Virus record (IMG/VR): IMGVR_UViG_3300048576_000482
Location: 1-59,017 of that record
Strand: one strand, 5' to 3'
From: a virus
Taxonomy: Duplodnaviria > Caudoviricetes
Length of the DNA: 59,017 nucleotides
Shown here piece by piece: positions 2,699 through 59,017 of the stretch (position 1 is the stretch's first letter; the number at the start of each line of letters is the position of its first letter). Under the pieces are notes generated by a model that did no database searches, was not told the origin of the DNA, and saw only the letters and a program-made list of their open reading frames with translations. A program made the position numbers and the translations under genes.

Positions 2699-3055
2699 CT
2701 ATTTTTTCTTGTTTTTACCTTTTGTCAATTCGACAGCGCCGCGAACGATCTCAAGAATTTTTTCTTGATCTGTCGGGGAAAGTGATTCGATGTCTAATTC
2801 CTGAAATTTTTTATAGATGTGGAATGTGGGAAGTTCGGGTGGCTTTGCAGCATTTTCTCGTTTAAGTAAATAATCGATTGAAACTCCATATAAATCGGCT
2901 AATTGCTTTAAAACATCTTCATTTAATCTCCGCCGGCCTGTTTCTAAATCGTAAATATATTGATTAGAAACGTTTAGCTTTTCCGCTACTTCGCCAACCT
3001 CAATGTTTAATTTCTCCCTTGTTTCACGCAAATTATTAGGGTTATCATGCTTCAT
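2699..3055 (-). CDS. CI-like XRE-family repressor
   Basis: HTH LRETREKLNIEVGEVAEKLNVSNQYIYDLETGRR...LADLYGVSIDYLL; divergent from a Cro-like gene. Confidence 0.88.
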   Translation of the reverse strand: MKHDNPNNLRETREKLNIEVGEVAEKLNVSNQYIYDLETGRRRLNEDVLKQLADLYGVSIDYLLKRENAAKPPELPTFHIYKKFQELDIESLSPTDQEKILEIVRGAVELTKGKNKKK

Positions 3056-11400: not shown

Positions 11401-12629
11401 CGTTCGTCGAACAAGCGGCGCAAATTGATTCCAAGATGGAACTGCTTCAAAATTACCGAGATCAATTGCAAGCCAATTTGTTAAAACAAGAGTTGATTCA
11501 GAAACAATGCGCTGCTTTAACGCTGGAATATTCGGCCTTGAGTATCGAACTTGAACCGCTTGTTACCATCGATGCTAGAATTACCGAACTCGAAACCTAC
11601 GCTCGTCTAAAAGAGCAAATCCCGGCAGCGGAGTTAGCTGTTCAAACTGCCCAAAATCAAATACAAGCAATTCAATCCTCTTTGGATAGTTCTAGGCTTC
11701 AGAAGGATAGTTTAATTATCGAACTTGAACCGCTTGCTACCATCGATGCCAGAATTACCGAACTCGAAACCTACGCTCGTCTAAAAGAGCAAATCCCGGC
11801 AGCGGAGTTAGCTGTTCAAACTGCCCAAAATCAAATACAAGCAATTCAATTAGAAGTTCGAGAAAAGCAAAACAAAGCGGCATTTTTAACGCTCGACTTA
11901 CCTAAAAACGATAAACAAGTTGAGCTTGACCGGACCATTGAAGCCAAAAACTTCCTTGATCACGAATTGGGAACATTACGGACCAATATTAATAACTCGT
12001 CCACCAAGTTAGGACGGTTGCAATCCGTTGTTGAAGGTTATCAAAAGCAAGAAGCCGAGTTATCTGAAGCTCAGGAAAAGCTCGATACTTTGACTGAAAC
12101 CTGGAATAATTACAATCTGCTTATTAAAGCTTGCGGATTTGACGGCGTACCATTGGCAATCATCCGAAATATCATCCCAGAACTAACCAACCGAGCTAAT
12201 TATATCCTGGGACAAATGAGCCGGGGAACCATGGCCATCGAGATAATTATGGACAAGGAGCAGGCCAACGGCAAAGAAGTAGCTTGCCTGGATGTGAAAG
12301 TAAACGAGATTTATTCCGGATCGTTATCCTTCTCGGAACGTTCCGGCGGAGAACAGGTCCGTGCCGGGTTGGCGTTCGCGTTCGCCCTGAGTGATATTAA
12401 GGCCCGGAGAATTGGAATTCAAGTCGCGTTTATGGCTGTAGATGAACCACCGTTTTTGGATGAAGATGGTACGGAAGCATATTGTGACGCGCTGGAGTGG
12501 TTGTATGGTGAATTCCCACAAATGAAGGTAACGGCTATCAGCCACGACCCAAGAATGAAGGCCAGGTTTAAGCAGGAGATTAATTGCTGGAAAGATGATG
12601 AAGGATCGCATTTGAAACTGGTGGCTTAA
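8415..12629 (+). CDS. sbcCD: Fused SbcD-SbcC (Mre11-Rad50) nuclease-ATPase
   Basis: Phosphoesterase motifs HTADSH, HAGDLFD, NHD and AGHIH; Walker A GKNGTGKSS; long coiled coil; signature SGGEQ; Walker B AVDEP; ISHD. Confidence 0.92.
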   Translation: MSQLTNLSNTEIIIGHTADSHIDELTGPELNGANLRLADTQRCLNDILNGFRREKVDVIVHAGDLFDKAKLWSDRTLQNLSVSIDFLRSCAELAPTVIIMGTDNHDNPGNFEVLKKLGIPNLYVITEPQIVMVLTKKGFIQVAGLPVVGEENLLDCESDSTAHDLSKLSIEEKKMIAINGLVGVIKSLESQLNLTMPSILVCHYEIQGCERENGTISSRKKEIIVPLDALTSSQYSLICAGHIHKAQRLQSIKPIYYSGPPTGIGFGEEGQPKGFYIHRLGSGVVQSDFIKTSYRRFYTISLTPEDVSFWNKDGALLMADKLPLVQDSIVRVSYTCSDEDNKIFNKRAFEQYLYDQGAFFVHSITPENVVLSTVKQTISEGDGVTENIDAWLKDYFLTLDITTRPDPDTQEKIITNVLNLAHPIIALASAKSPSGKLSGVFSLKSLKAVNYRMHRNSFIDFEKIGFAIVNGKNGTGKSSFFSDALIDGFFEEPRSGETGSWITNGQWDGLIEIVFELNSTWKVTRQRSRRGQGKIELTLHELVGENWENRSGVNKGETQAKINALLGMDADTLRCVALVQQGRYDQFFKADRKDRMRILCAILGIGVYEVIMELAKDRAKEINREIGMIKDKVAELGQKLSGKDVVLAELGSTTLDLASYHQDLKQKEFAHQQTLELIVSLNTEIEKTKGIKEQIAALEQEVLTKNRQVTEQGEIIQKMNKLLDNRAVITEKAVEYETLKEQQTALNARKPQLESLEQQEKQLSEQLNQQENTVKTAEKILDNRAVILEKATECETLKEQRTALNAKKPQLDSLGQQENQLSNELHELIIASEKLGGDIITLEMTLTNQDIIKQNADLYRKNAPKLEAMNELSIKHRDKQTECREIETKLTVENNRLKHEYSTIETAISQAEQKALMLNNSGCIDSAKAACNFLADAVTANASLNGLHAKLEELKHSELRRELAAQLSQANEELVAIQFDTIEFERLKSEVIRLAPFVEQAAQIDSKMELLQNYRDQLQANLLKQELIQKQCAALTLEYSALSIELEPLVTIDARITELETYARLKEQIPAAELAVQTAQNQIQAIQSSLDSSRLQKDSLIIELEPLATIDARITELETYARLKEQIPAAELAVQTAQNQIQAIQLEVREKQNKAAFLTLDLPKNDKQVELDRTIEAKNFLDHELGTLRTNINNSSTKLGRLQSVVEGYQKQEAELSEAQEKLDTLTETWNNYNLLIKACGFDGVPLAIIRNIIPELTNRANYILGQMSRGTMAIEIIMDKEQANGKEVACLDVKVNEIYSGSLSFSERSGGEQVRAGLAFAFALSDIKARRIGIQVAFMAVDEPPFLDEDGTEAYCDALEWLYGEFPQMKVTAISHDPRMKARFKQEINCWKDDEGSHLKLVA
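10581..10890 (+). repeat. Diverged 174-bp (58-aa) tandem duplication, N-arm of coiled coil
   Basis: LDNRAVITEKAVEYETLKEQQTALNARKPQL at 10581 and LDNRAVILEKATECETLKEQRTALNAKKPQL at 10755. Confidence 0.9.
11544..11849 (+). repeat. Near-identical duplication with 174-bp (58-aa) period, C-arm of coiled coil
   Basis: 11544-11675 vs 11718-11849: 132 nt with 2 mismatches. Confidence 0.95.
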
Positions 12630-37224: not shown

Positions 37225-38067
37225 ATGCCCGAATACAGAATGGGACCGGCGAGAATTACCCATAATGGTGTTGTAAAAGATTGGTTTACTCGCGGTTGTA
37301 AGGTAACCATCGAGCCAACCCTTAAGGAAATCAAATGGGATCAGTACGGTGATACCAAGTATGATCAATTAGTCATGGGGGCGGCAGTTAGCCTCGAATT
37401 AGTTGTCGCGGTCAAAAAGACCGATGATATGGCAATATTTTTATCATGGGCTGACCTAGTTACCGATGGGGCTAAGTTATTGGTAGACGGGGTTGTCCAT
37501 ATTGGCCGGAGTCTCCGCGATGGAGCTAAGTCTTTATTGCTTCACCCGATTGATTTAGGTGATAGCGACGTTTCGAATGATGTTTATCTTCCGTTGGCAG
37601 CTTGCGTTGGAGGTTTCCAGAAGATTTTCGAGGGGACCAATGAAGATATATTTACTTCCAAATGGGAGGGCTTGATTGATCAGACCACTCTGAGACTCTT
37701 CCAAATCGGTGACCGCTCCGCTTCTGCGGATATTATTGCGCCGACGGTATCCAGTACAGTTCCGGTCGATAACGCGGAGGCCATTGCCAAGGCCATCGGA
37801 CTAAATATTGATTTTGTAATGTCTGAGGACATCAACCCGGATACTGCCGTAAAGGGTAATACCGTTATGCAAACTGTAACCGGCAGTACGTTATTTACCA
37901 ATTATACGGTATCGTATATTTCAGCGTCTAAAACCATCCGAATCACAACTGGGGCGGCGTTGGAAGCATCAACCGAGTATCTGGTTACGCTTACAACCGG
38001 CGTAAAAGATCTGTCGGGGAATGCGTTGGCGGCTCCGAATCAGTTGACGTTTACGACCGGAGTGTAA
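37225..38067 (+). CDS. Major tail protein with C-terminal Ig-like domain
   Basis: Position; C-terminal APTVSSTVP...FVMSEDI...LEASTEYLVTLTTGVKDLSGNAL. Confidence 0.8.
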   Translation: MPEYRMGPARITHNGVVKDWFTRGCKVTIEPTLKEIKWDQYGDTKYDQLVMGAAVSLELVVAVKKTDDMAIFLSWADLVTDGAKLLVDGVVHIGRSLRDGAKSLLLHPIDLGDSDVSNDVYLPLAACVGGFQKIFEGTNEDIFTSKWEGLIDQTTLRLFQIGDRSASADIIAPTVSSTVPVDNAEAIAKAIGLNIDFVMSEDINPDTAVKGNTVMQTVTGSTLFTNYTVSYISASKTIRITTGAALEASTEYLVTLTTGVKDLSGNALAAPNQLTFTTGV

Positions 38068-38118
38068 GCGGTAAGGCAACGAGTTAAATTAGCAAAAGTA
38101 ATATTAAGTAATACTTTA

Positions 38119-38158
38119 AAACAGAGTAGAGGGATCACCTCTCTACTCTGTTTATTTT
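38119..38158 (+). terminator. Rho-independent terminator
   Basis: AAACAGAGTAGAG...CTCTACTCTGTTT-ATTTT. Confidence 0.7.
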
Positions 38159-38180
38159 AAAGTGGAGGTATTAAAAAAAT

Positions 38181-38612
38181 ATGGAAACCTATATCAATCT
38201 TGATTTATTTACACCAAAATCATTAACCGTGCGAATTAACGGGACCGTGTATCCCGTGAAAGATATAACCATGGAGCATTTTTTGGAATTGCTTGAACTT
38301 AGCCGGGGAGCGATCGGGACCGACGAGACTTTGGATAAAACGATTAAAGAAATAAGGAAGACCACTGTAATTTCATCTTGGGTTCGGTTTAGAAAGTGGT
38401 TTAGTCGAATACTACGATTCGGCCGGCCCATTACAGAATATGAGGGAATTAATCGTTTATACCGGTTTCTCCACAAAGTCATGCCAACGGTACCCGGCGA
38501 GTTAATCTTAAATATGACTCAAGCTCAGATTGCAGCTTTGCTGGAATTTTTGATTCAATCCTGTTATGAGGGGCGGAATAACCCAAATTTTCGAAAACCG
38601 ATGTTAGGCTAA
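38181..38612 (+). CDS. Tail assembly chaperone (gpG-like)
   Basis: Between MTP and TMP; slippery site near the 3' end. Confidence 0.75.
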   Translation: METYINLDLFTPKSLTVRINGTVYPVKDITMEHFLELLELSRGAIGTDETLDKTIKEIRKTTVISSWVRFRKWFSRILRFGRPITEYEGINRLYRFLHKVMPTVPGELILNMTQAQIAALLEFLIQSCYEGRNNPNFRKPMLG

Positions 38613-48547: not shown

Positions 48548-49576
48548 ATGAATAAATTAGTGATTAAAGGTAATACCGTGATATGCGGCATGGAAGTACC
48601 CAAAATTTCCGGAGGATTTGGGCCGGGAAGACCGGTTATGTTAGCAAAGACGATTGCGGAACTGCATGAAATGCAATTAAAACATGTTAATGAAGCTATC
48701 AATGCAAACCGGAAACGATTTAAAGATGGAGTTGATGTTATTGATTTAAAAAACTCGATCACTTTAAGTGATCCACTTTCTAAAAACTCGGTCGACCAAA
48801 TCGACCCACTTCTTGTAGCTGGGATTTTATCTAAACAATCAATAGCCAACTCAGAAAATATCTACTTATGTTCCCAACGTGGCTACGCCAAACTTTTAAA
48901 GATATTCAACGACGATCTGGCATGGGAACGATATGATCAGATTATCAGCGAATATTTCGAAATGAAGGAAAGAAAGCCAAAACTTAAACCAATGGCACAG
49001 TTTAACCGGGAATTGAAATTGGCTAGCGAATTAGCGTTTCAGGCTTCCGACAACAAAACTAAGGCTAGAATATATCGTGCATTCGCGGACAGCCAAAACC
49101 TTGAGGCCAGTTTTATTAGTGTACTTGAAACTTTACCGGAAAATAATGACCGCCTTTTGCCCACCCCGGGTGGTCAAGTTAGTCAAGCAGTGATCACCCC
49201 AATCAATGATCCGGGGCTTAAAAAATTAAATTCTTTCTTGGAAGATGTACTTTCCTTAATTCGTTTCGGAGAAGTGGATCGTCGCTATATTCAGATTAAA
49301 ACATTAACTTCCGGTGAATTACGCGGAATGACTATGTTATTACTTTGGACGTGGGGAATATATGAAATATGGGCAGCAAAATACTTTCATGGAAATAGAA
49401 TTGACTATAAAGCTTACCATGATAACTTGATTGTTTGTCTTAAAAAACAGCCATATTATGGTGGATATATCGACAATAAAATTGCCTTTATCGATAAAGA
49501 ACGCCACCGGCCACATGCATTCTATCCTAAAAGGCTTGAAGGGGTTTTATTGGAGATTTTGAAGATGTTTGAATAA
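48548..49576 (+). CDS. ORF6N-domain (antirepressor-type) protein with primase-ATPase-like C-terminal domain
   Basis: GGFG...MLAKTIAELH..HVNEAINANRKRF.DGVDVIDLK...IYLCSQRGYAKLLKI; C-terminal part aligns with the end of 16547..19603. Confidence 0.8.
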   Translation: MNKLVIKGNTVICGMEVPKISGGFGPGRPVMLAKTIAELHEMQLKHVNEAINANRKRFKDGVDVIDLKNSITLSDPLSKNSVDQIDPLLVAGILSKQSIANSENIYLCSQRGYAKLLKIFNDDLAWERYDQIISEYFEMKERKPKLKPMAQFNRELKLASELAFQASDNKTKARIYRAFADSQNLEASFISVLETLPENNDRLLPTPGGQVSQAVITPINDPGLKKLNSFLEDVLSLIRFGEVDRRYIQIKTLTSGELRGMTMLLLWTWGIYEIWAAKYFHGNRIDYKAYHDNLIVCLKKQPYYGGYIDNKIAFIDKERHRPHAFYPKRLEGVLLEILKMFE

Positions 49577-49885: not shown

Positions 49886-50049
49886 TTTTGTTCATTCTTA
49901 TCGTCTTTGGGCGGTATTTTTATCTCCAGCGTAGAGCCGGACCTGTTTGCACCAGGTTTCCCGGCTCTTTTTTCAACCTCTTGAGCGAGCAAGAGGTGAT
50001 ATCTTAATCGGTAGATATCGCCTTTTAGTTTATATAAATATAAAGGCGG

Positions 50050-50301
50050 GTGGTTAGTTTGTTGAAGGAAATTTTAGAATTAGTTGGCCTTATCGGGGGT
50101 GCGCTTACAGTATTAGTGGGTCTTTATAAATGCATCAGAACCCTCGAAGAAATGAAGAAATCCGGGCAGGAACGAAAAGAGGAAAATAAACTTTTAATCC
50201 ATGGAGTATTGGCGGCTTTGGACGGATTGCAACAGCTTGGCGCTAATGGCAATGTCACGAAGGCAAAAGAAAACTTAAAGAATTTTATCATTGATAATTG
50301 A
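50050..50301 (+). CDS. Holin-like membrane protein
   Basis: N-terminal TM plus coiled coil, upstream of the lysin. Confidence 0.55.
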   Translation: MVSLLKEILELVGLIGGALTVLVGLYKCIRTLEEMKKSGQERKEENKLLIHGVLAALDGLQQLGANGNVTKAKENLKNFIIDN

Positions 50302-50397
50302 GGTGTTAATCATGAAACTATTGGCTATTTTATTCGGTGATTTGATAATGCAGCTGTGCCAACGGATTATCAACTTTTTTATGGGCGGTGACAAACA

Positions 50398-50997
50398 TTG
50401 AAACCAATACAGTTAACCGATCTTATTGCCGCCATGGAGCACAAAAATTACCGAGTTTTCGAAAGTAATCACAAACCCTACAATTTGAACCTCGTCGGTA
50501 TCCGGGCCGCTGACCCGACGCCCAATGTTTTCAATGATCAGCTTTGGGTGTTTTGGCGAAATAAACAAAGCAATCCAGCTTGGGATATTAATATTTATCG
50601 CATCACAACCGACCCCGGTCTGTATTGGCTTTTTAATCCGATGAATCCAAAGGGAACGGGGATATTAAAGCCCGGTCAGTATCCGGGATTGTGGCAAATT
50701 GGATTTCATAACGGAAAATATGAAGCGCTTGTCCAGGCCAAACCTTGTACCTTAATCAGGGATTACAACCGGGACGATAAGGTCGATTATTACTCCGGCC
50801 GGGAGGAAACCGGGCTTTTTGGGGTTAACCTGCATCATGCCGGGGAAAATTCGGTGACGGTGGATAAATGGTCTGCCGGGTGCCAGGTGTTTGCTGGAAT
50901 AAGGGAGTTTAATGAATTTATGGATCTGGCGCGCAAAGCCCGGGACTTTTGGGGAAATTCATTTACCTATACGCTGATGGAGGAGGATGAAATATAA
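50398..50997 (+). CDS. Putative endolysin with YkuD/L,D-transpeptidase-like catalytic motif
   Basis: GVNLHHAG...WSAGCQV (H...SxGC); located between two membrane-protein genes. Confidence 0.65.
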   Translation: MKPIQLTDLIAAMEHKNYRVFESNHKPYNLNLVGIRAADPTPNVFNDQLWVFWRNKQSNPAWDINIYRITTDPGLYWLFNPMNPKGTGILKPGQYPGLWQIGFHNGKYEALVQAKPCTLIRDYNRDDKVDYYSGREETGLFGVNLHHAGENSVTVDKWSAGCQVFAGIREFNEFMDLARKARDFWGNSFTYTLMEEDEI

Positions 50998-51003
50998 AAC
51001 CCC

Positions 51004-51165
51004 TCATTTTGGAGGGGTTTCTTTGTTTAGTTCCTCGCGGAGCCTGGCCGCGAGGATCACGGTATCGATTATCCGGGAGATAGATTCGCCGGTTTCGGCT
51101 GATTTGTTTTTCAGCCACTCGGCGTTATCCTTGCTTAAGTAAATGTCTTTTCGAATTCCGGCCAT
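51004..51165 (-). CDS. Ribbon-helix-helix (CopG-like) protein, 53 aa, not in ORF track
   Basis: MAGIRKDIYLSKDNAEWLKNKSAETGESISRII; GAGGTG RBS. Confidence 0.75.
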   Translation of the reverse strand: MAGIRKDIYLSKDNAEWLKNKSAETGESISRIIDTVILAARLREELNKETPPK

Positions 51166-51175
51166 TTTTAGCACC

Positions 51176-51424
51176 TCACCCATTATTTTTTAAAACTCTT
51201 AACTGATCAGAATACTCACCGAATTTATCAGTTAGGTACTGTACCTGAGCTTTAACGCATCCCATTTCAAATTGTAGTTCTTGGTATCTGGGGTTTCCGG
51301 TTCCGATCTTGATTTCTAAAAATTCATCTTCAAGTTTTTCATACTGCTCATTTAAAGTTTTAATTTTTGAGTTAATGTAATTCATTGCGTTTATAGCTCT
51401 TTCGGTGATTTGTTCGTTTAACAT
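51176..51424 (-). CDS. Hypothetical coiled-coil protein
   Basis: AAGGAG RBS; own promoter. Confidence 0.7.
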   Translation of the reverse strand: MLNEQITERAINAMNYINSKIKTLNEQYEKLEDEFLEIKIGTGNPRYQELQFEMGCVKAQVQYLTDKFGEYSDQLRVLKNNG

Positions 51425-51461
51425 TTTAATCGACTCCTTTGTTTATTTATCTTATATTTTT

Positions 51462-51501
51462 ATTATACACCATTTTAACGTATACGTCAATATGACGTAT
51501 A
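51462..51501 (-). promoter_or_regulatory. sigmaA promoter overlapped by a perfect palindrome
   Basis: TTGACG-17-TATAAT on the - strand; TATACGTCA-ATA-TGACGTATA at 51481-51501. Confidence 0.8.
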
Positions 51502-51534
51502 GATATTTTTAAAATAATTTTGGAGGTGTGGTCA

Positions 51535-51837
51535 ATGACTAATTTCACAATCTCTCCGCTCGACGGTGGAACTGTAGCGATTTTGATTTTTATTATCCAA
51601 GTATTAAAAAAGCACGTCATGCCCAGGTGGATTCCGGTACTACCTTTCCTGGTTGGTTGGGTTCTGGCGGTCCCGGTTGTGTTTGTAACCAAAGGGGCCG
51701 GACTTGCGGTCCCGGTTTTTGTTTCGGCTGTTTTTTTGGAAGGGCTGAAGATGGCCGTTTTGTCGATGGCTACATATAAAATCGGCTTTACCACGATCGC
51801 CGGAAAGGATACACAACGAAATGATAAAAAAGTTTAA
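51535..51837 (+). CDS. Holin
   Basis: Three hydrophobic segments, IQVLKK...RWIPVLP, basic C-terminus. Confidence 0.7.
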   Translation: MTNFTISPLDGGTVAILIFIIQVLKKHVMPRWIPVLPFLVGWVLAVPVVFVTKGAGLAVPVFVSAVFLEGLKMAVLSMATYKIGFTTIAGKDTQRNDKKV

Positions 51838-51967
51838 ATGGTTTTTGATCGCTTATGGACTGGGGATTATAACTGGTATCTGGTTAACGGTCAGGGTGTA
51901 TCATTTTTGGCCGTTTCTGTTTAAGTTGATAGCAAGATAATACTGGCTTTATTTGGTTCTGAAATTT

Positions 51968-52000
51968 AAAAGCCTACGGGTTATCCCGTGGGCTTTTTTT
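51968..52000 (+). terminator. Rho-independent (bidirectional) terminator
   Basis: AAAAGCCTACGGG-TTAT-CCCGTGGGCTTTTTTT. Confidence 0.8.
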
Positions 52001-52122
52001 AATTTTTATATACCATATCCTGTATCTTGTCAAGAATAATGTCGTATTATATAATCTATCCAATCTCCCTGGTTATCGGCCAGGGGCTTTTTGCTTATTT
52101 ATCGGCTTATTCTTGATTCCTT

Positions 52123-52413
52123 TTAACTCACCTTTTTAACTACCCCACCCAGCACCCGATCACATTTCGGGCATCGGTCAACAGAGTTCCCATTGTTGTC
52201 GTAAAATATCGATTCCGGGATGCACCGCAGCTTCCCCACCACCAGGGTATAACCGCATAAACAGTGATAGATTTTCCCGGGCTCAGATTGCCCAGAGTTA
52301 TCCCGGGAACCTTTGGCCGTTGGGGTAAGTTGCCGATTAATGTATTCCTGGAATTCGAGTTCATCCGGGGAGATGGATTGAATTATTTCGGCAGTATAAC
52401 GATTAGTTGGCAT
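52123..52413 (-). CDS. Zn-ribbon hypothetical protein
   Basis: CLCG...CPKC; AAGGAG RBS. Confidence 0.55.
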   Translation of the reverse strand: MPTNRYTAEIIQSISPDELEFQEYINRQLTPTAKGSRDNSGQSEPGKIYHCLCGYTLVVGKLRCIPESIFYDNNGNSVDRCPKCDRVLGGVVKKVS

Positions 52414-52514
52414 TATAATTCACGCTCCTTAAATTTTAATCTTCCTTGGTCCCCTTCTTAGGGCCGGGAGGGTGGCGAACCTCCCGCGCACGATTTTTAC
52501 GCCGGCCAAGGTGG

Positions 52515-52751
52515 TTACTGTGGGAAATGCTTCCCCACTTCCAACGCTGCCAACATTTCTTCCATTTTTAGAGTCCTTATTTGCCGCGGTGTATCATCCC
52601 AATTATCAAGCAGGGAGGCAAATTCACCGGCGACGATTTGAAAGGCTTCCTTTTGAGTCATTTCAGTTTGGACGGGTTTTGGTTGGTCACTGGTAATACC
52701 TGCAAATTCTCTTATTATTGTTGCGGCTTCCGTGTGAGTATTGGTTGTCAT
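52515..52751 (-). CDS. Hypothetical protein
   Basis: AAGGAG RBS. Confidence 0.6.
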   Translation of the reverse strand: MTTNTHTEAATIIREFAGITSDQPKPVQTEMTQKEAFQIVAGEFASLLDNWDDTPRQIRTLKMEEMLAALEVGKHFPQ

Positions 52752-52870
52752 GGTCTACACGCTCCTTGTAAAATTATTTTTAGGGTGTCGGTTCCCCCTA
52801 TCCCGGATATCTCGGCTACTATGCCGCAGTGTCGAGATGCCCTGGAAAGAGGGACCGGCGGGGAGCCGGG

Positions 52871-53143
52871 TTATTTTAATGACCTTTCTGTAATGATAAC
52901 TAAATTTCTCACCGGGTAAAGAATGAATCTTTTAACCCATTCCGGATAAATGTTACGAGCTAATTTTTGATTAAGATAAATATTAAGCATTGCCGTTTGA
53001 TGTCTGAGCCATTTCTTAAAATCGATTCTGCCGTGCTGGCAAATCGGACATTGGTCACCGTAAGCATAGACTTCATCTTCGTAATAACCGTCTTTGTCTA
53101 TAATTGGAATAAGACCGATCCCATTGCAATTCCAACATTTCAT
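52871..53143 (-). CDS. Hypothetical protein with CxxCxG motifs
   Basis: CWNCNGIG...CPICQHG; AAAGGAAG RBS. Confidence 0.55.
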   Translation of the reverse strand: MKCWNCNGIGLIPIIDKDGYYEDEVYAYGDQCPICQHGRIDFKKWLRHQTAMLNIYLNQKLARNIYPEWVKRFILYPVRNLVIITERSLK

Positions 53144-53177
53144 GGGTGACACTTCCTTTCTCAATTTACCATCGTAT

Positions 53178-53978
53178 TTACCAAGTATGTTGCCGGGTTG
53201 CTTTAATCGTCCCGTCCGGCATGGCCCATTCGTAAACCATATCTATACTGCATTCCTCGTTGGGGTCATTGCATTCATCCGAATATTTCCGGAGTAAAAC
53301 TTTTTCGCCGGTAGTTTTAGCCTGTTCAAACTTAGCCGCGAGTTCCGCTTCAGCGGCCTTTTCCGCTTCTGCCTTTTTCTGTTCGGCCGCTTCCTTGGCC
53401 TCTTTCAATTCCTGCAATCTTACCCGGTCAATCGACGCGATACACTTTTCCGCAAAAGGCGCCATTGCTCCGGGATATGTAGCGGAAGCCCAACCGATTA
53501 TATTGACATCCTGCCAGTTTAATTTAAATCCATCAACAAAATAATCTAAAATTGGATATCCGTCCGAGTCACCAGCCTTGACGACTGTTACTTCTACATG
53601 GTCCGTGGGGATGCTATTTTGAAGCTCAATTGTTTTTGTTTTCATAGCTTCCAGTAACGGCTTTTCAATGGCTTCCTGTTCCGCACGCTTGGCGGCTCTT
53701 TTGGTTTCCCGTTTAGTTTCTTCTTCGGCTTCAAGGGCGTTGTATTGCTCCACCAGGGCGGCTAAATCCGGTTTGTTCTCATATTTAACGTTAATTCCTT
53801 TGCCTTGATAGGTCTCCTGAAAATGGACCACTTTTGTTCCGTTTATGACTGTCGGTTTTCCACCGGTCAATTGTTTACCGGCTATTACTCCGCAATCAGG
53901 AGACGCTACCCAACTGATACTATGAATATAAATGTCCATATCGGGGTGAATTTTCTTGGATACCACTTCGCTTGCCAT
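53178..53978 (-). CDS. Hypothetical protein
   Basis: GAGGAGG RBS; C-terminal CNDPNEECS.D...PDG....RQHTW. Confidence 0.75.
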   Translation of the reverse strand: MASEVVSKKIHPDMDIYIHSISWVASPDCGVIAGKQLTGGKPTVINGTKVVHFQETYQGKGINVKYENKPDLAALVEQYNALEAEEETKRETKRAAKRAEQEAIEKPLLEAMKTKTIELQNSIPTDHVEVTVVKAGDSDGYPILDYFVDGFKLNWQDVNIIGWASATYPGAMAPFAEKCIASIDRVRLQELKEAKEAAEQKKAEAEKAAEAELAAKFEQAKTTGEKVLLRKYSDECNDPNEECSIDMVYEWAMPDGTIKATRQHTW

Positions 53979-54011
53979 TTCTATCTCCTCCTCAAATTTA
54001 TCCTATAATTC

Positions 54012-54099
54012 ATTATAGCATGATTTAAAACATTTTGCAACATATTAAAACGATATAATTTAAAATCTAATTGACTGCAACAATTTAAGATTGTATACT
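54012..54099. promoter_or_regulatory. Divergent sigmaA promoters
   Basis: - strand TTGCAA-17-TATAAT (54040-54012, extended TG); + strand TTGACT-17-TATACT (54071-54099). Confidence 0.75.
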
Positions 54100-54122
54100 A
54101 TACCTAGATAGGAGGTATTAAC

Positions 54123-54290
54123 ATGGACTATTTAACATTAGAGGAATTATTGAAAGAGTTGAATATCAGGGCGGACAGAACAACCGCGTGGCGTTGGCGC
54201 AAAGAGGGAATGCCACATATCAAAATTGGAAACCAGATCCGATACAACAAAGAAGAAGTATTAGAGTGGTTAAAGAATAAAAATAAATAA
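54123..54290 (+). CDS. Excisionase/MerR-like HTH protein, 55 aa, not in ORF track
   Basis: MDYLTLEELLKEL...TTAWRWRKEGMPHIKIGNQIRYNKEEVLEWL; AGGAGG RBS. Confidence 0.8.
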   Translation: MDYLTLEELLKELNIRADRTTAWRWRKEGMPHIKIGNQIRYNKEEVLEWLKNKNK

Positions 54291-54293
54291 GGA

Positions 54294-54833
54294 GTGATTG
54301 CCTTGTACCAATCCCTTGAAGTCGGCAAACTATTCCGCCCCGATGTGTATAGTTACCCGGAGCAAGTTCAATTTGAATTCGAACAAAGCGGACCATCCCT
54401 CTATATATATTTCAGTCAGCCAACCATCAAAGAGATCGAGGCCGTCCGTTCTGGTAAATTTAAAATCGGTTTTTATGAAACAGAAAGTATCATATTCATC
54501 CTAGTTAAATTCGAGGGCATGAACTGGATCGATGCCCCATATACGGTCCATTTGTCGCCGCCATTTGAATTTATGGAGGAGCTGGATAGTTCGCCGATGC
54601 TTGGGTTTGGGTTGCAAATATTCCTTGTGGACGCAGCGACAGGGATTTTAAAGGTTATAAGGTATGTCGGATTAGGACATGATTTCTCAGTTCGGCTCCG
54701 GGATGGAATTTTAAGACAAAAAGGAATACCCTTTGATAAAGGTACTTATGGATTTCGATTAAACGAAATATACCGTAGATACAGCACAGATCAATTAGTT
54801 GATTATGCAAAATGGTTCTTTAAGATAGAGTAG
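54294..54833 (+). CDS. Hypothetical protein
   Basis: 179-aa ORF co-transcribed with the Xis-like gene. Confidence 0.7.
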   Translation: MIALYQSLEVGKLFRPDVYSYPEQVQFEFEQSGPSLYIYFSQPTIKEIEAVRSGKFKIGFYETESIIFILVKFEGMNWIDAPYTVHLSPPFEFMEELDSSPMLGFGLQIFLVDAATGILKVIRYVGLGHDFSVRLRDGILRQKGIPFDKGTYGFRLNEIYRRYSTDQLVDYAKWFFKIE

Positions 54834-54877
54834 AGATAGACGATTGCGCGAAATTATAATTATAAGTAATTTACCGG

Positions 54878-54931
54878 ACAGGACAGAACCTGTCCTTTTT
54901 ATTTGCCCTGAAAGCCAATAAAATTAAAGTA
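54878..54931 (+). promoter_or_regulatory. Shared upstream element, copy 2
   Basis: ACAGGACAGAACCTGTCCTTTTTATTTGCCCTGAAAGCCAATAAAATTAAAGTA. Confidence 0.8.
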
Positions 54932-54980
54932 ATACTAAGTAATATTTAAAAAATCAACACTAAGAAAGGATGTTAACCGC

Positions 54981-56039
54981 ATGAAAACAAAAATCATTTC
55001 CAGCGACAACGGCCGGTCATTTAATAAATCTGGCTGCGCTTATCCGGGTATCAATGGTACACAATTCAAAACAAATGTTTTTCAGTCCGTCATGGCTCCA
55101 GCGGAATCCGGTTTCAATCTTACAGTAAAAATCGATCCAACCGACATCTGGATTGAATACCAGCGTGGCGGAGAATTTGGCCGCGGGGAATACCTTCCGG
55201 AGCACTATCTTGCCAACGGCTTGGCTATCCGGCAAAAACCAAAAAGCCTAATTAATGACCGGAATAGTGACAAAACCAATAAGCAAAATATTATTCAGAC
55301 CTTGATCGCCTGTTCCTTTTACGCCAAAACTGGCGATAACGTCATCCTGCTTACCAACATTCCGGCCGGCGATTATTCAGCCCAGCAGGGGAAACTAGGC
55401 GCCGCGCTCCGGGGCGTCCACAAAATTGTCCATAAAGCCGGGGACATGAAGGGCGTCGCTACGGAATTCAATATCGAAAAATGTTACGAATTCCCCGAGT
55501 GTGAAACGGCTTATTATGGCGCTGCTTATGATTTAGATCTGAATCTGGTTAATCCGGATATATGGAACTATCCCACGTTGATTTTAGACATCGGGGATGA
55601 GACGACAAACTATGTCGCAATGAATCCCCAGGGTGATCCGGTGGACGGTGAGTCCGGCACAATCCCTCATGGGATGAGCGAGGTATATTCGGATGTGTGC
55701 GCCTGGGCGACTAAAAAAGGTGCAGATATAAGTATCTCGGAACTAACCAGGATGATCATCTTCGGAGGTACTTTGTTTGCCGGTAAAGAGCAATTAAATT
55801 ATCGTACGGAATATCTGCGACGGCTCAGCGAGTTCGATTATACAATTTATAGCAAGTTAAATTCGCTGGTAAGCTTAAAACGATACCGGACTTTGTTACC
55901 AGTAGGCGGGAGCTTGCCACACACCGGCGACATGATTAAAAAACGATATCACTTCATGAACATTCCGGAAAAGACGGCCGGGGCTCAGATGTTAAATTGC
56001 TACGGGCAGTATATTGCGTATATGCTGGCGCAGGAGTGA
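54981..56039 (+). CDS. parM: ParM/StbA/Alp-family actin-like ATPase
   Basis: Phosphate 1 SDNGRSFNK; connect 1 FPECETA; phosphate 2 LDIGDETTN; adenosine VGGS; connect 2 AQMLNCYG. Confidence 0.85.
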   Translation: MKTKIISSDNGRSFNKSGCAYPGINGTQFKTNVFQSVMAPAESGFNLTVKIDPTDIWIEYQRGGEFGRGEYLPEHYLANGLAIRQKPKSLINDRNSDKTNKQNIIQTLIACSFYAKTGDNVILLTNIPAGDYSAQQGKLGAALRGVHKIVHKAGDMKGVATEFNIEKCYEFPECETAYYGAAYDLDLNLVNPDIWNYPTLILDIGDETTNYVAMNPQGDPVDGESGTIPHGMSEVYSDVCAWATKKGADISISELTRMIIFGGTLFAGKEQLNYRTEYLRRLSEFDYTIYSKLNSLVSLKRYRTLLPVGGSLPHTGDMIKKRYHFMNIPEKTAGAQMLNCYGQYIAYMLAQE

Positions 56040-56045
56040 TATTCT

Positions 56046-56198
56046 ATGTCAAAAGTGCTCGATTTAAAACAACTTAGTTCCGTAGAAAATAAAATAATCA
56101 GCAAAATTGGCGCCACCGATTATATCTGCAATATTATTTTTACGGATGGAAGTTGGTTGACGATTCACACCGGATTGGGTGGCGGAAAATCAGAATAA
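56046..56198 (+). CDS. Small hypothetical protein (50 aa), not in ORF track
   Basis: AGGAG RBS overlapping the parM stop; MSKVLDLKQ...GGGKSE. Confidence 0.5.
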   Translation: MSKVLDLKQLSSVENKIISKIGATDYICNIIFTDGSWLTIHTGLGGGKSE

Positions 56199-56210
56199 AA
56201 TGAGGCTCAA

Positions 56211-56651
56211 ATGATCATAACAAAATCCTTTAAATATGATACCGAACGCCACCTGGAAATACATGAGAAAATAAATTCACTCACTAAAATAGGCCGAGGC
56301 GGCGAATTCAGCGACTATGTCCGGGAACTGATTGAGAAGGATTGCCGCAAGGAGTCCACTCAATTAAGCCAATTAGCCCCCGTTGAAAACTCTTTTCCGG
56401 ACCGTGCCGAATTGGAAAAAGAACTAGAGCGTCTACGGGGTGATATGCAATTTCTAATCAGCCTAGTGAAGCAACTAAAAGTTTCCGGGGTGGCCCAGGC
56501 CGATGGAGAATCTGGCGATGGAGACTTAACAGATCAGGGATTGATTGAAATTGTTGGCGCATTCGAAGAGGCCGCGGCGAATCCGGAAGTAAAAGAAATC
56601 ACCCGGGAAGAGATTAAAAGTAAATTAAAGTCGAGGTTTAAGTTAGAGTAA
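56211..56651 (+). CDS. ParR-like RHH adaptor protein
   Basis: N-terminal TKSFKYD...FSDYVRELIEKD RHH pattern, coiled coil and tail; downstream of parM. Confidence 0.65.
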   Translation: MIITKSFKYDTERHLEIHEKINSLTKIGRGGEFSDYVRELIEKDCRKESTQLSQLAPVENSFPDRAELEKELERLRGDMQFLISLVKQLKVSGVAQADGESGDGDLTDQGLIEIVGAFEEAAANPEVKEITREEIKSKLKSRFKLE

Positions 56652-56676
56652 AAAAATAGTAGGAGCGTGATATTTA

Positions 56677-56910
56677 TTGAGTCAAGAAAAACTTACATCA
56701 TTTACATCATTAGGAAAAATTATGCTATGTCTTGGAATCCTGGTACATACCCCAGGTAATGATCGCGATTACATTCGCGGCTTGAATCCGCTTTCGTGGA
56801 TAATGATTGTCGCTTATGCGGTGATGTGGTTTATTGTCTGTCTGTTTAGCGAGAATCGGTTACAAGATTTGTTCACGAATTCTGATTTAGAAGATATCAG
56901 ATTATGGTAG
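56677..56910 (+). CDS. Small membrane protein
   Basis: AGGAG RBS; hydrophobic helix. Confidence 0.55.
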   Translation: MSQEKLTSFTSLGKIMLCLGILVHTPGNDRDYIRGLNPLSWIMIVAYAVMWFIVCLFSENRLQDLFTNSDLEDIRLW

Positions 56911-56919
56911 GAAGGATGG

Positions 56920-57138
56920 ATGATCATGTCCAGGCATAAATCACCACCCAAACCCGTTAAAATAGCCATTGCAAAACAAGATTTACCGATGTTTCCTTCT
57001 TGGTATATCAATTACCGTGGTGGCCGGGAGTATAAAATCAAGGAATTACCGCTGTCACATAGATTTGCTGCGAAAGTCCGGGATAAAAAGGGTAGGTATT
57101 TTTACTTTACCCAGGAAGAGTTGGAGCGGTTTTTTTGA
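56920..57138 (+). CDS. Hypothetical basic protein
   Basis: Operon context with RBS. Confidence 0.5.
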   Translation: MIMSRHKSPPKPVKIAIAKQDLPMFPSWYINYRGGREYKIKELPLSHRFAAKVRDKKGRYFYFTQEELERFF

Positions 57139-57191
57139 GGTGAAGGAAGTATGCGGAGATAAAGAAGCCGTAGCGGGAAAGGCGGCGTAAT

Positions 57192-57731
57192 ATGAAAGTA
57201 GGAACTAAAAGTATTCTTTTTGGAGTACATCAATTTATATGGCATCCAATAACCGTTCTTATTGCATGGTGGAAGTTATATGGCCGCCCAAATTGGCCAG
57301 AATTTGTTTGTATCATTATTCATGACTGGGGTTACTGGGGTAAGTCAAATATGGATGGCGAAGAAGGGGAAAGTCATCCAGAACTGGCCTGCTTATTAAC
57401 AAGCAAATGGTTTGGTATTAGAAGTGAATACGGAAGACTTTGTTTATTACATTCTCGCCATTATGCACGATTATCTAATCAGGAACCTTCAAAATTATGT
57501 TGGGCGGATAAATTAAGTATCAAATATGATCCATGGTGGTTTTATCTTCCCCGGGCAATTTTATCCGGTGAAATTAAGGAATATCGTAAGTCAGCAGCAG
57601 ACTCCGGCCATACCCCCATTGATAGGACGCACCGTGAATGGTTTAAATGGGTTAAGGAATACCTATCCAAGCAAGGGATAGATCAAAAATCAAGCGCAAA
57701 ATTGATTAATCGTGAACGAAAGGCCGGGTGA
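57192..57731 (+). CDS. HD-domain-like phosphohydrolase
   Basis: H...IIHDWG...H...LHS...WADK pattern. Confidence 0.6.
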   Translation: MKVGTKSILFGVHQFIWHPITVLIAWWKLYGRPNWPEFVCIIIHDWGYWGKSNMDGEEGESHPELACLLTSKWFGIRSEYGRLCLLHSRHYARLSNQEPSKLCWADKLSIKYDPWWFYLPRAILSGEIKEYRKSAADSGHTPIDRTHREWFKWVKEYLSKQGIDQKSSAKLINRERKAG

Positions 57732-58213
57732 ATAACATGATTATCGTTCCCGGAAAAATAGTTTCTCCAGTAATCGATCCATCGGTTCGATCTTTATGCT
57801 GCCGCCCATATCCGGGCCACCCAAAAGGATGCCCAAATTTTAATCATCGAGTCAATTGTCCGCCCAAGGCGCCGCTTTGGGATGAAGTCTTTGATATTAC
57901 CAAGCCTACTTATATCATTATCAATCAATTTGATTTCGGCGCCCACGTTGAACGAATGAAGCAGCTCCATCTGGATTGGAGTGACCGGCAACTTGAATGT
58001 TGTTTATACTGGCAAAATACAGACAGAAAGGAACTGCGGGCTGGGATTGCAGCGTTTAAAAAGTTACATCCGGAATACATTGTGGAGGAATGTCCAGAGG
58101 CTATGGGTATAAATGTTACCAAAACAACTAGCCAGGTTGGAGTGGAACTTGAATGGCCGCCTAAAAAGTTTGTTCATCATGTGGCGCTGGCGGGAATAAG
58201 AGATGAGGGGTGA
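57728..58213 (+). CDS. DUF2284-like metal-binding protein
   Basis: GCPNFN...CPP and PEAMGINV..T. Confidence 0.6.
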   Translation: MNNMIIVPGKIVSPVIDPSVRSLCCRPYPGHPKGCPNFNHRVNCPPKAPLWDEVFDITKPTYIIINQFDFGAHVERMKQLHLDWSDRQLECCLYWQNTDRKELRAGIAAFKKLHPEYIVEECPEAMGINVTKTTSQVGVELEWPPKKFVHHVALAGIRDEG

Positions 58214-58219
58214 ACGCAA

Positions 58220-58351
58220 ATGAATTCCGAATGTCAAAAGTGTATTTGTAAAAATTGTTCTATCAATAATACTGAATGCCGCCGATGTTGGCGAATATGT
58301 TGCGAAAATGAATTTCAGCCGAAGGATCATTGTGCGGCCAAGGAGGATTGA
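58220..58351 (+). CDS. Cys-rich micro-protein (43 aa, 9 Cys), not in ORF track
   Basis: MNSECQKCICKNC...CRRCWRICC; GAGGGG RBS; fills the gap in the operon. Confidence 0.5.
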   Translation: MNSECQKCICKNCSINNTECRRCWRICCENEFQPKDHCAAKED

Positions 58352-58356
58352 TATAA

Positions 58357-58641
58357 ATGAATTGTAACTGTCTAACTGAAATGACCCAAAAGCTTAGAGA
58401 GCATACAGGCGATCCGGAAGCTTGTTATCCAGATAGCTTTGTTACGATTACCGAAAAAATTGGCGATAAAAATAAGAACAGCATTAAAGTAGTGCCAGTA
58501 ATGACCGCTTATTACCGGGATAAAAAGCAGGACGGAACGCTTGCAAAAAGAGTCATACCTCATGAAATTAGTATTGGATACTGCCCATTTTGCGGAGTGG
58601 CGTTGTTTGATGGAGTGGTCACCAAGAAGGAGGCCAGTTAA
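58357..58641 (+). CDS. Zn-binding hypothetical protein
   Basis: MNCNC...YCPFCG; AGGAGG RBS. Confidence 0.65.
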   Translation: MNCNCLTEMTQKLREHTGDPEACYPDSFVTITEKIGDKNKNSIKVVPVMTAYYRDKKQDGTLAKRVIPHEISIGYCPFCGVALFDGVVTKKEAS

Positions 58642-58645
58642 ACCA

Positions 58646-59017
58646 ATGGACTACACCGGCATAAAATCATTCAAACTTGAACATACCCTACTCGGTTGGG
58701 AAGCTGAAATCCAGATCGATTTCAACCACCCCGAAGCCATGGGCAATATAGAAGAAATGGTTGATTATTGGACTGGTGGTCCGAAGCGATTAAGTCAAAG
58801 CCATGGCGATTATGTCCAGGCGTTTTTAAAGCAATTCGCTCCGGTGCTGTTCCATATGTCCGAGGAAATCAGTGACATAAAGGATATTATTAACGAGTTT
58901 AAAGATTGGAATACTGAAGGATTCTGTGACATGGACGGTTCACACGGGATAAAAATCATTAGCGTGGATTGCTGGCAAGCGGACGAAGATGAGTTTGATA
59001 TTAGTATGAAGGAGTGA
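58646..59017 (+). CDS. DUF2528-like hypothetical protein
   Basis: AGGAGG RBS before ATG 58646; YWTG..RL...EGFCDMDGSHGIKI. Confidence 0.6.
   Translation: MDYTGIKSFKLEHTLLGWEAEIQIDFNHPEAMGNIEEMVDYWTGGPKRLSQSHGDYVQAFLKQFAPVLFHMSEEISDIKDIINEFKDWNTEGFCDMDGSHGIKIISVDCWQADEDEFDISMKE

Follow-up and report, generated by a model that had tools for sequence, protein, structure and literature searches.

The window (the whole stretch of DNA analysed) is a 59,017-bp provirus record from IMG/VR, IMGVR_UViG_3300048576_000482, and the subject here is a cassette near its right end, at 54981–56651, in which a parM-like gene is followed by a 50-amino-acid (aa) open reading frame (ORF), orf50, and by a parR-like adaptor gene. 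A preliminary description made from the sequence alone had placed three ORFs at this locus, and all of them were recovered exactly at those positions (54981–56039, 56046–56198 and 56211–56651), on the plus strand. The cassette and the repeat sites associated with it comprise the following features.

54876–54895, plus strand: terminator-like hairpin (terminator scan) parting the upstream genes from the parM unit
54926–54951, plus strand: candidate centromere/operator site 1, two direct AAGTAATA repeats 10 bp apart, 30–55 nt upstream of parM
54981–56039, plus strand: parM-like gene encoding an actin-fold ATPase of 352 aa (Pfam, PHROG and PDB profile matches, fold search)
56046–56198, plus strand: orf50, a probably lineage-specific small gene, function unassigned (AGGAG 8 nt upstream; codon usage)
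56211–56651, plus strand: parR-like adaptor gene, 146 aa (ribbon–helix–helix (RHH)-like N-terminus, coiled coil, acidic linker, conserved C-terminal tail)
38095–38120, plus strand: candidate centromere/operator site 2, a near copy of site 1 between the tail genes at 37225–38067 and 38181–38612

The 352-aa protein is a ParM-type actin-fold ATPase. It exceeds the Pfam cut-offs for ALP_N (PF17989; 28.8 bits versus 26.3) and MreB-like_C (PF21522; 35.3 versus 27.8), aligns end to end with PHROG 691 ('partition protein'; 1.4e-22) and, when its family profile was compared with solved structures, retrieved the pCBH ParM (6izr; 6e-15) and Dh-cParM1 (8x1i; 1.7e-13). In a Foldseek search with its AlphaFold2 model (predicted local distance difference test (pLDDT) 72, predicted template modelling score (pTM) 0.73), 22 of the 22 entries listed down to rank 26 were ParM/Alp-type proteins or the archaeal actin homologue Ta0583 (1e-16 to 1e-11), with MreB, FtsA and PilM near 1e-8, behind the ParM-type proteins. 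The actin motifs pointed out in the preliminary description hold across the family: in an alignment of 12 members, the invariant columns are actin-fold nucleotide-binding positions (D9/G11, P172/E173/E175, D203/G205/D206/T208, G309/G310 and N339/C340/G342). These motifs are named as in Bork et al. and PMC4446434. The family is small, with 13 proteins in a search of 5.8 billion, and occurs in 5 of the 58 genomes of one host's class at E ≤ 1e-30; its members in the integrative elements of relatives (see below) share 30–62% identity with the window ParM. Among 50,697 records of deposited phages there was no DNA match to 50000–59017 and no protein match to the window ParM, and scans of viral contigs with the single sequence of the window ParM or integrase gave no match, alignments being needed as queries.

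A homologous ORF of 94–146 aa lies directly 3' of ParM in all 11 relatives with a visible junction, as it does in the window, and alignment of these adaptors revealed a conserved N-terminal motif (KSF(K/R)Y..HP.IH.W..FSEAIRRLIE), a coiled coil and a conserved C-terminal F(I/L)KNRYF. The 146-aa protein matched no Pfam or PHROG family (its VapB match, at 0.043, was below threshold), and the RHH-type Pfam matches among 10 members of the adaptor family were all sub-threshold (VapB in 3 of the 10, MatP_C in 1 of the 10). A word-based homologue search returned only the protein itself, a sequence profile search of the PDB gave nothing meaningful and Foldseek gave no match. Its AlphaFold2 model (pLDDT 71.7) has residues 1–13 extended, followed by helices at 15–26 and 30–53, and residues 1–48 superpose on 2q2k_B (Z 5.1, root-mean-square deviation 1.7 Å, 44 residues; VIA-align), which we take to be the ParR of pSK41. 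In the VIA-align search against structural representatives, 12 of the 13 rows aligned to the adaptor N-terminus were RHH proteins, with middling Z values (4.1–5.2). The preliminary description had called this protein an RHH adaptor; a conserved adaptor with an RHH-like N-terminus in the model stands, and a Pfam assignment above threshold or a high Z value does not accompany it. Because the Z values are middling, 'RHH adaptor' is kept as a supported prediction, and the 146-aa protein is likely to be one.

Upstream of parM, the two AAGTAATA repeats form a 26-nt site, AAAGTAATACTAAGTAATATTTAAAA, which has a single other match in the window at three or fewer mismatches. This second copy (site 2) is identical at 23 of the 26 bases and lies within the head–tail gene block, just upstream of the tape-measure gene; two matches were found in none of 100 shuffles. 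A terminator-like hairpin (about 38122–38150) stands directly 3' of site 2. The underlying hexamer, GTAATA/TATTAC, recurs in the family: it was observed 15 times, against about 1 expected, in 10 stretches of 90 nt upstream of parM genes, with at least one copy in 8 of the 10 loci and always at −28 to −61 from the parM start codon. Over 12 loci, a hexamer pair was present in 7, a single hexamer in 2 and none in 3, with the paired hexamers spaced 8–14 nt apart. The parM-upstream pair is the only such pair in a complete phage genome of 63.3 kb (G001), and likewise the only one in the sequenced stretches examined for the G004 element (L005) and for G045, and an 81-kb stretch of G002 holds one further pair, outside the element. 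We read the 26-nt sites as ParR sites, that is, as candidate centromere/operator sequences, and the adaptor-site repeats near the operon promoter that are expected of a type II system would be represented by the conserved hexamers. The type II (ParM/ParR) cassette proposed in the preliminary description thus agrees with the ParM-type fold, the adjoining conserved adaptor and the upstream repeats. The 23/26 copy in the tail operon, moreover, connects the cassette with the structural region of the phage genome.

Between parM and parR lies a 171-bp spacer, unusual among the relatives, which holds orf50. The codon-usage score of orf50 (0.285) is close to the in-frame mean (0.24 ± 0.10), and none of 4,000 off-frame windows scored higher. 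The gene is absent from all 11 relatives, in 10 of which ParR starts no more than 8 nt from the ParM stop codon or overlaps it, leaving no room for such a gene. The preliminary description had suggested orf50 as a possible third component of the partition system; this pattern led us to reject it as a conserved one. In the eleventh relative, G034, an unrelated 71-aa ORF lies between ParM and ParR (L033 1003–1218), and the ParM–ParR junction seems to accept insertions of small genes. Searches of 5.8 billion proteins and 1.84 billion representatives retrieved only orf50 itself plus, at about 1e-6, one WD40/STAND and one SLH protein, whose matches are repeat-like and not convincing as homologues. 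Its Pfam match (DUF4988, 0.014) is below threshold, and its look-alikes in the Atlas, at 0.90 or below, are unnamed small proteins and serve as a lead only. As judged from codon usage and its good ribosome-binding site (AGGAG), orf50 is probably a real, lineage-specific insertion.

To place the cassette relative to the phage, we compared the ends of the record with those of integrated relatives. At the left end of the window lies the integrase gene.

1–1218, minus strand: tyrosine integrase, 405 aa, full length (PF00589 at 8.2e-21)

The intact look ascribed to this integrase in the preliminary description is borne out by its full length, its PF00589 match and the residues R222, H341, R344 and Y377, which are invariant in integrase alignment A3. 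It shares 67% identity with the integrase of G002 and 63%, end to end, with that of G034. The record is cut at gene ends (CheckV completeness estimate, 84%): its first bases are the integrase stop codon, which places attL outside the record, and its last ORF ends at 59017. Among the relatives, all four with both ends examinable are att-bounded elements with a tyrosine integrase and with the cassette adjoining attR, and the direct repeats that bound them are tRNA-derived and 48–57 nt long.

G002: 20.6-kb element; perfect 57-nt repeat, 3' part of tRNA-Arg(ACG); attR 445 nt after ParR; integrase 67% identical to that of the window
G003: 43.2-kb prophage; perfect 57-nt repeat, tRNA-Thr; integrase at one end, ParM–ParR at the other
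G004: 10.7-kb element; 49-nt repeat, 98% identical, tRNA-Arg(acg); order DnaB helicase ... ParM–ParR–integrase
G034: 64.9-kb prophage; perfect 48-nt repeat, tRNA-Arg(tcg); ParR ends 782 nt before attR; integrase 63% identical to that of the window

PF00589 was detected in three of these integrases by hmmscan of the protein and in that of G034 by a genome search, so that the joint occurrence of integrase and ParM, a survey of which the preliminary description had proposed, was found in four of four relatives. Across them, ParR ends 445–1349 nt from attR. The two elements whose integrases most resemble that of the window (63–67%), G002 and G034, both sit in tRNA-Arg genes, and the window phage itself most likely integrates into a tRNA-Arg gene. 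The G034 prophage has TerS (47%), the major head protein, the clamp and other genes in common with the window phage. The window TerL was not found in the four records of relatives searched; the relatives are different phages that have the cassette in common. An 18-mer, TTCTAAGAATTTTTCTAA, is identical in G002 (L018/L003) and G034 (L034/L033), about 100–150 nt inside both attL and attR, and is likely to be an arm-type integrase site; the window lacks this 18-mer, and the att-proximal ends of the window phage lie outside the record.

Further copies of the cassette were seen in less complete contexts. In G045, a holin, a peptidoglycan-binding protein, ParM, ParR, a helix–turn–helix (HTH) gene and a truncated Mg-chelatase gene follow one another on a contig that ends inside the prophage; the ORF after ParR and the HTH_3 gene (L028 18725–19114) encodes the C-terminal domain only of a Mg-chelatase/ComM-like protein, which suggests that this prophage interrupted a host Mg-chelatase/ComM-like gene. 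A second locus in G004 (L021) has the order amidase–holin–ParM–ParR, with no tyrosine integrase on its contig and element ends not located, and one metagenome contig carries ParM–ParR–integrase. Integrated copies of ParM–ParR were thus found on the chromosomes of G002, G003, G004, G034 and G045, and every copy of the ParM family with a resolved context sits inside a mobile element. The position is recurrent: post-lysis and att-proximal in G002, G003 and G034, and post-lysis also in G045 and at the second G004 locus. The G004 element (L005 1993–12719) is integrated in tRNA-Arg and encodes a DnaB-type helicase, ParM–ParR and an integrase, with no virion genes among the genes scanned, and could be a satellite or an integrative plasmid. 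No homologue of the window packaging, head or tail genes was found in the 10.7- and 20.6-kb elements (with Pfam run on some of the genes). In G001, by comparison, a complete phage of 63.3 kb with a terminal repeat of 127 nt, ParM–ParR occurs together with TerL, a head protein and a replication initiator, and neither PF00589 nor PF00239 was found.

An attR to the left of 54 kb, which would have put the cassette outside the phage, was named in the preliminary description and sought, and no tRNA fragment, att core or flanking repeat was found at 47–59 kb. Over the whole window there was no tRNA gene, no tRNA-like Rfam match, no G002 tRNA-Arg 3' core, no generic T-loop-plus-acceptor pattern and no shared 12-mer acceptor end (two or fewer mismatches), and no direct repeat longer than 16 nt flanks the cassette. 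A second IMG/VR provirus, G060, is 100% identical to the G034 prophage (C4 125435–190352) over the two stretches compared; it is rated 100% complete, yet starts at the integrase stop codon and ends about 1.2 kb short of attR, losing parR. Such provirus records can evidently truncate the right arm and its att-proximal cargo, and this truncation, combined with the 84% completeness estimate, argues that the window attR lies further right. We therefore consider it very probable that attR lies beyond 59017 and that the cassette is inside the prophage.

On this basis, we give about an even chance to the reading that the cassette is a complete type II (ParM/ParR/repeat-site) module, carried as att-proximal cargo by an integrating temperate phage of the Bacillota, which keeps a free circular form of the phage and makes it a facultative plasmid-prophage. 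The mechanism is taken over from plasmid systems, and from these we infer DNA binding, ParR–ParM contact, polymerisation and an episomal phase. ParR dimers would bind the AAGTAATA repeats upstream of parM through the RHH-like N-terminus, and probably also the second copy in the tail-gene cluster; ParM would be recruited by the conserved C-terminal tail of ParR, and ATP-dependent ParM filaments would then push ParR-bound copies of the phage genome apart. Because a ParMRC system is useful only on separate DNA copies, it should act on the free circular genome, and segregation would matter only for that circle, which would exist ahead of integration, following excision or in a cell that offers no free attB. 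In these situations the cassette may keep the free circular genome from being lost at division, and the dual integrated and episomal lifestyle put forward in the preliminary description would follow. A role in inheritance is favoured by the gene order, motor then adaptor as in plasmids, and by the presence of ParM–ParR in G001, a complete phage that gave no match to either integrase family sought (PF00589 and PF00239). Retention of the family in elements of 10.7 and 20.6 kb, too small for whole phages, also fits replicon maintenance better than virion production.

Several observations weigh against a partition role of this kind. Only two or three short repeats lie near the window operon, far below a classical parC; that of plasmid R1 has 10 iterons. 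Three of the 12 loci (L004, L013 and G034) have no hexamer upstream of parM, and a consensus scan of 54896–54980 called no clear sigma-70-type promoter for parM. The RHH assignment draws on a Z of about 5 for a 45-residue domain, with sub-threshold Pfam matches, and the att sites of the window are outside the record, so that residence in the prophage rests on the relatives and the second site. In addition, the authors of the CGP3 study argued against a segregation role for the system of an integrated prophage (PMC4446434), and phage-plasmids, by definition, typically have no integrase (PMC12977533).

The chief alternative is an AlpAC-like role, which fits the anatomy about as well as an episomal lifestyle: the cassette would position or transport excised, replicating phage DNA after induction, raising lytic copy number rather than securing inheritance. 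In CGP3, an integrated Corynebacterium prophage, the first ORF at the edge encodes the actin-like protein, and the CGP3 adaptor binds repeats in the operon promoter region, with phage copy number 2-fold lower in mutants (PMC4446434); the window cassette is likewise att-proximal in an integrating phage. However, motor precedes adaptor in the window, as in plasmids, whereas the order is reversed in CGP3, a difference that its authors used against a par-like role (PMC4446434). The family is, moreover, kept in the 10.7- and 20.6-kb elements, where no homologues of the window packaging, head and tail genes were found, and in G001, where no integrase family was. With these points on either side, we regard the post-induction role as possible, if on balance unlikely.

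The remaining explanations concern where the cassette belongs and whether it works. Provirus edges are approximate (G060 stops about 1.2 kb before the G034 attR), between the lysis genes and the cassette lie a minus-strand block and a divergent promoter region, and several genes at 51–58 kb have no phage family, all of which would suit a cassette foreign to the phage, be it a second mobile element or host DNA swept in to the right of the lysis genes by the provirus caller. We judge this improbable, given the lack of any tRNA fragment, att core or flanking repeat at 47–59 kb, the 23/26 copy of the parM-upstream site inside the tail operon, PHROG families on both sides of the cassette and the recurrence of the same post-lysis place in the relatives; in addition, the unrelated complete phage G001 encodes (37792–38592), about 22 kb from its ParM, a full-length homologue, 51% identical, of the function-unassigned 266-aa protein from 53178–53978 on the minus strand of the window. 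Action of the cassette while integrated, on the chromosome at division or sporulation or as partition incompatibility against incoming related episomal phages, seems quite improbable. Functional, polymerising ParMs with downstream RHH ParRs have been reported from Firmicutes chromosomes (PMC12270681), Dh-cParM1 is among the best PDB matches to the window ParM and the episomal relative G001 has a similar upstream hexamer pair; on the other side, there is no evidence here of a host function, every resolved copy is inside a mobile element, and the family is sparse and patchy (13 proteins in 5.8 billion, 5 of the 58 genomes of one class), a distribution that suits mobile cargo rather than a host function. 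Finally, the unusual 171-bp spacer with its orphan ORF, and the absence of a clearly called parM promoter, could mark an inert relic of a plasmid-prophage ancestor that later gained an integrase. We think this very improbable: parM and parR are both intact and keep all invariant family residues, codon usage is in-frame-like, and the recurrence of the arrangement in integrative elements whose ParMs are only 30–62% identical argues for selection.

We extend the facultative plasmid-prophage reading beyond the window only tentatively, to integrase-bearing phages and small satellite-like elements of one Bacillota class, tRNA-integrated and with a full ParMRC in an att-proximal position; some of the 'chromosome-encoded ParMs' of 2025 would then be prophage partition systems. 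At least one such phage would have a second centromere-like site in its tail operon and could be inherited as a free circle.

The rest of the window has the layout of a temperate siphovirus-like phage, with the following further features.

2699–3055, minus strand: cI-like repressor (HTH_3; PF01381 at 1.8e-14)
25508–50997, plus strand: packaging, head, tail and lysis genes (PHROG matches: TerS, TerL, portal, major head protein, tape measure, tail J-like protein, endolysin-like protein)
54123–54290, plus strand: HTH_17 (excisionase/AlpA-type) small DNA-binding protein (PF12728 at 6.4e-10; PHROG 66/668)
54294–54833, plus strand: phage-family protein, function unassigned (PHROG 12389, 1.8e-36)
58357–59017, plus strand: two phage-family genes at the right edge of the record, past the cassette (PHROG 7033, 6.5e-11; PHROG 646, 4.1e-11; DUF2528)

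Replication and recombination genes comprise an SbcCD-like fusion, a helicase, a primase, a clamp-like protein, resolvases and a methyltransferase. The fusion is a single 1404-aa ORF in the early region (8415–12629), with an SbcD-like metallophosphatase N-terminus and an SbcC-like C-terminus (PF00149; PHROG 100 and 77), and resembles an SbcCD-type nuclease in fused form. An anti-repressor-family protein (PHROG 1726, 3e-21) is encoded at 48548–49576, between the tail-fibre region and the lysis genes, an unusual place for a regulator. The endolysin-like gene ends at 50997, with a bidirectional terminator at 50996–51021 (terminator scan), and is followed by a minus-strand block (51447–53978), a divergent promoter region and then a plus-strand block, extending to the right end of the record, that comprises the HTH_17 and PHROG 12389 genes, the cassette and further small genes. 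Within the divergent promoter-like region (53979–54122), which is flanked by the 266-aa minus-strand gene and the HTH_17 gene, an imperfect direct repeat of 27 nt (54036/54076) accompanies an inverted repeat of 15 nt (53995/54012), and the region could act as a second regulatory switch. The HTH_17 gene opens the plus-strand block that holds the cassette, and a 49%-identical homologue of it adjoins parM in G002.

The usual division of temperate phages is between integrating ones and ones maintained as plasmids, and here a plasmid-type module recurs in a fixed position beside attR in elements that have clean att repeats and integrases that look functional. An active module would give such phages two routes to stable lysogeny, and lysogeny would be possible without a free attB, with effects on host range, on prophage copy number and on how prophage callers and phage-plasmid classifiers handle these genomes. 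Should the facultative plasmid-prophage reading be true, the split between integrative prophages and phage-plasmids would not be a clean one. A defined 26-nt candidate binding site is now available for experiments.

Among known systems, the closest in sequence and fold are the ParMRC systems of Firmicutes plasmids (the pCBH ParM of Clostridium botulinum, 6izr/6ixw, and the pSK41 ParM, 3js6), which like the window have a motor followed by a small RHH-like adaptor and upstream repeats, and which are the best PDB sequence matches to the window family (6e-15) and its top fold matches (about 1e-16). The window differs from them in that its ParM is only 14–17% identical to theirs in structural alignments, its ParR has no sequence match to a solved protein, its carrier is an integrating phage and its 2–3 repeats by the operon are accompanied by a distant second site. 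AlfA/AlfB of Bacillus subtilis pLS32, the analogy drawn in the preliminary description, share with the window an actin-like segregation system, a small adaptor and very few short upstream repeats (three 8-bp repeats in AlfA/AlfB). That analogy fails at the level of the motor, with AlfA (6bqw) at only rank 45 in the fold search (about 8e-8, versus about 1e-16 for ParM-type proteins). In length, the listed AlfA chain is 275 residues, and the 352-aa window ParM aligns well with ParM-type chains of 318–369; an AlfA-type compact actin was rejected for the window on this rank and size. In the prophage-plasmid N15, centromere sites are scattered through the genome. Its SopAB system resembles the candidate pair of the window in having more than one centromere-like site per phage genome (IR1–4; PMC7205306), although N15 is type I (ParA/ParB-like) and has no integrase, and the second site of the window is predicted from sequence.

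Closer in genomic setting are the chromosomal and prophage systems. The cParMR genes (Dh-cParM1 and Cb-cParM; Ali et al. 2025, PMC12270681) combine a ParM with a downstream, predicted-RHH ParR on Bacillota chromosomes, like the integrated copies described here, and Dh-cParM1 (8x1i) ties for the best fold match to the window ParM and is its third-best sequence match. They are treated there as chromosomal genes of open role, and the words phage, prophage and integrase each have 0 occurrences in the main text, whereas every resolved copy of the present family is in an att-bounded mobile element; a prophage-cargo context is thereby offered for at least one family related to these 'genome-encoded ParMs'. 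AlpC/AlpA/alpS of CGP3 also combine an actin-like protein and an adaptor with upstream adaptor sites in an integrated prophage, at its edge (PMC4446434), a position seen in our relatives (ParR end 445–1349 nt from attR) and probable for the window; CGP3, however, is cryptic, its gene order is adaptor then motor, and the role given to its system lies in replication rather than inheritance. The Bacillus plasmid prophages IEBH, Bp8p-C and B83 (PMC11526630) are, like the window phage, tailed and temperate, with a parM-like gene and an RHH/HTH adaptor (in the window a predicted one), but are kept as plasmids, whereas the window phage and its four relatives are integrated with tyrosine integrases, with att repeats seen in the relatives. 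As a provirus record with a full-length tyrosine integrase, the window falls outside the phage-plasmid definition of a 2026 typing study, into which G001 fits, and chromosomal copies of plasmid-type phages were described in that study as rare, integrase-less and defective (PMC12977533).

Already known, therefore, are ParM-like partition in Bacillus plasmid prophages (PMC11526630), an actin-like system in the integrated prophage CGP3 (PMC4446434) and polymerising ParMs on Firmicutes chromosomes (a 2025 paper in the Journal of Biological Chemistry, PMC12270681). The literature searched, available in part, yielded no description of an integrase-bearing, att-bounded family of ParMR phages, which is not proof of absence. 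New relative to these systems are a distinct ParM/ParR subfamily whose ParR is outside any family, the constant att-proximal position that this subfamily occupies in tRNA-integrating elements whose sizes differ widely, and a conserved short candidate operator with, in the window phage, a predicted second copy in the tail operon.

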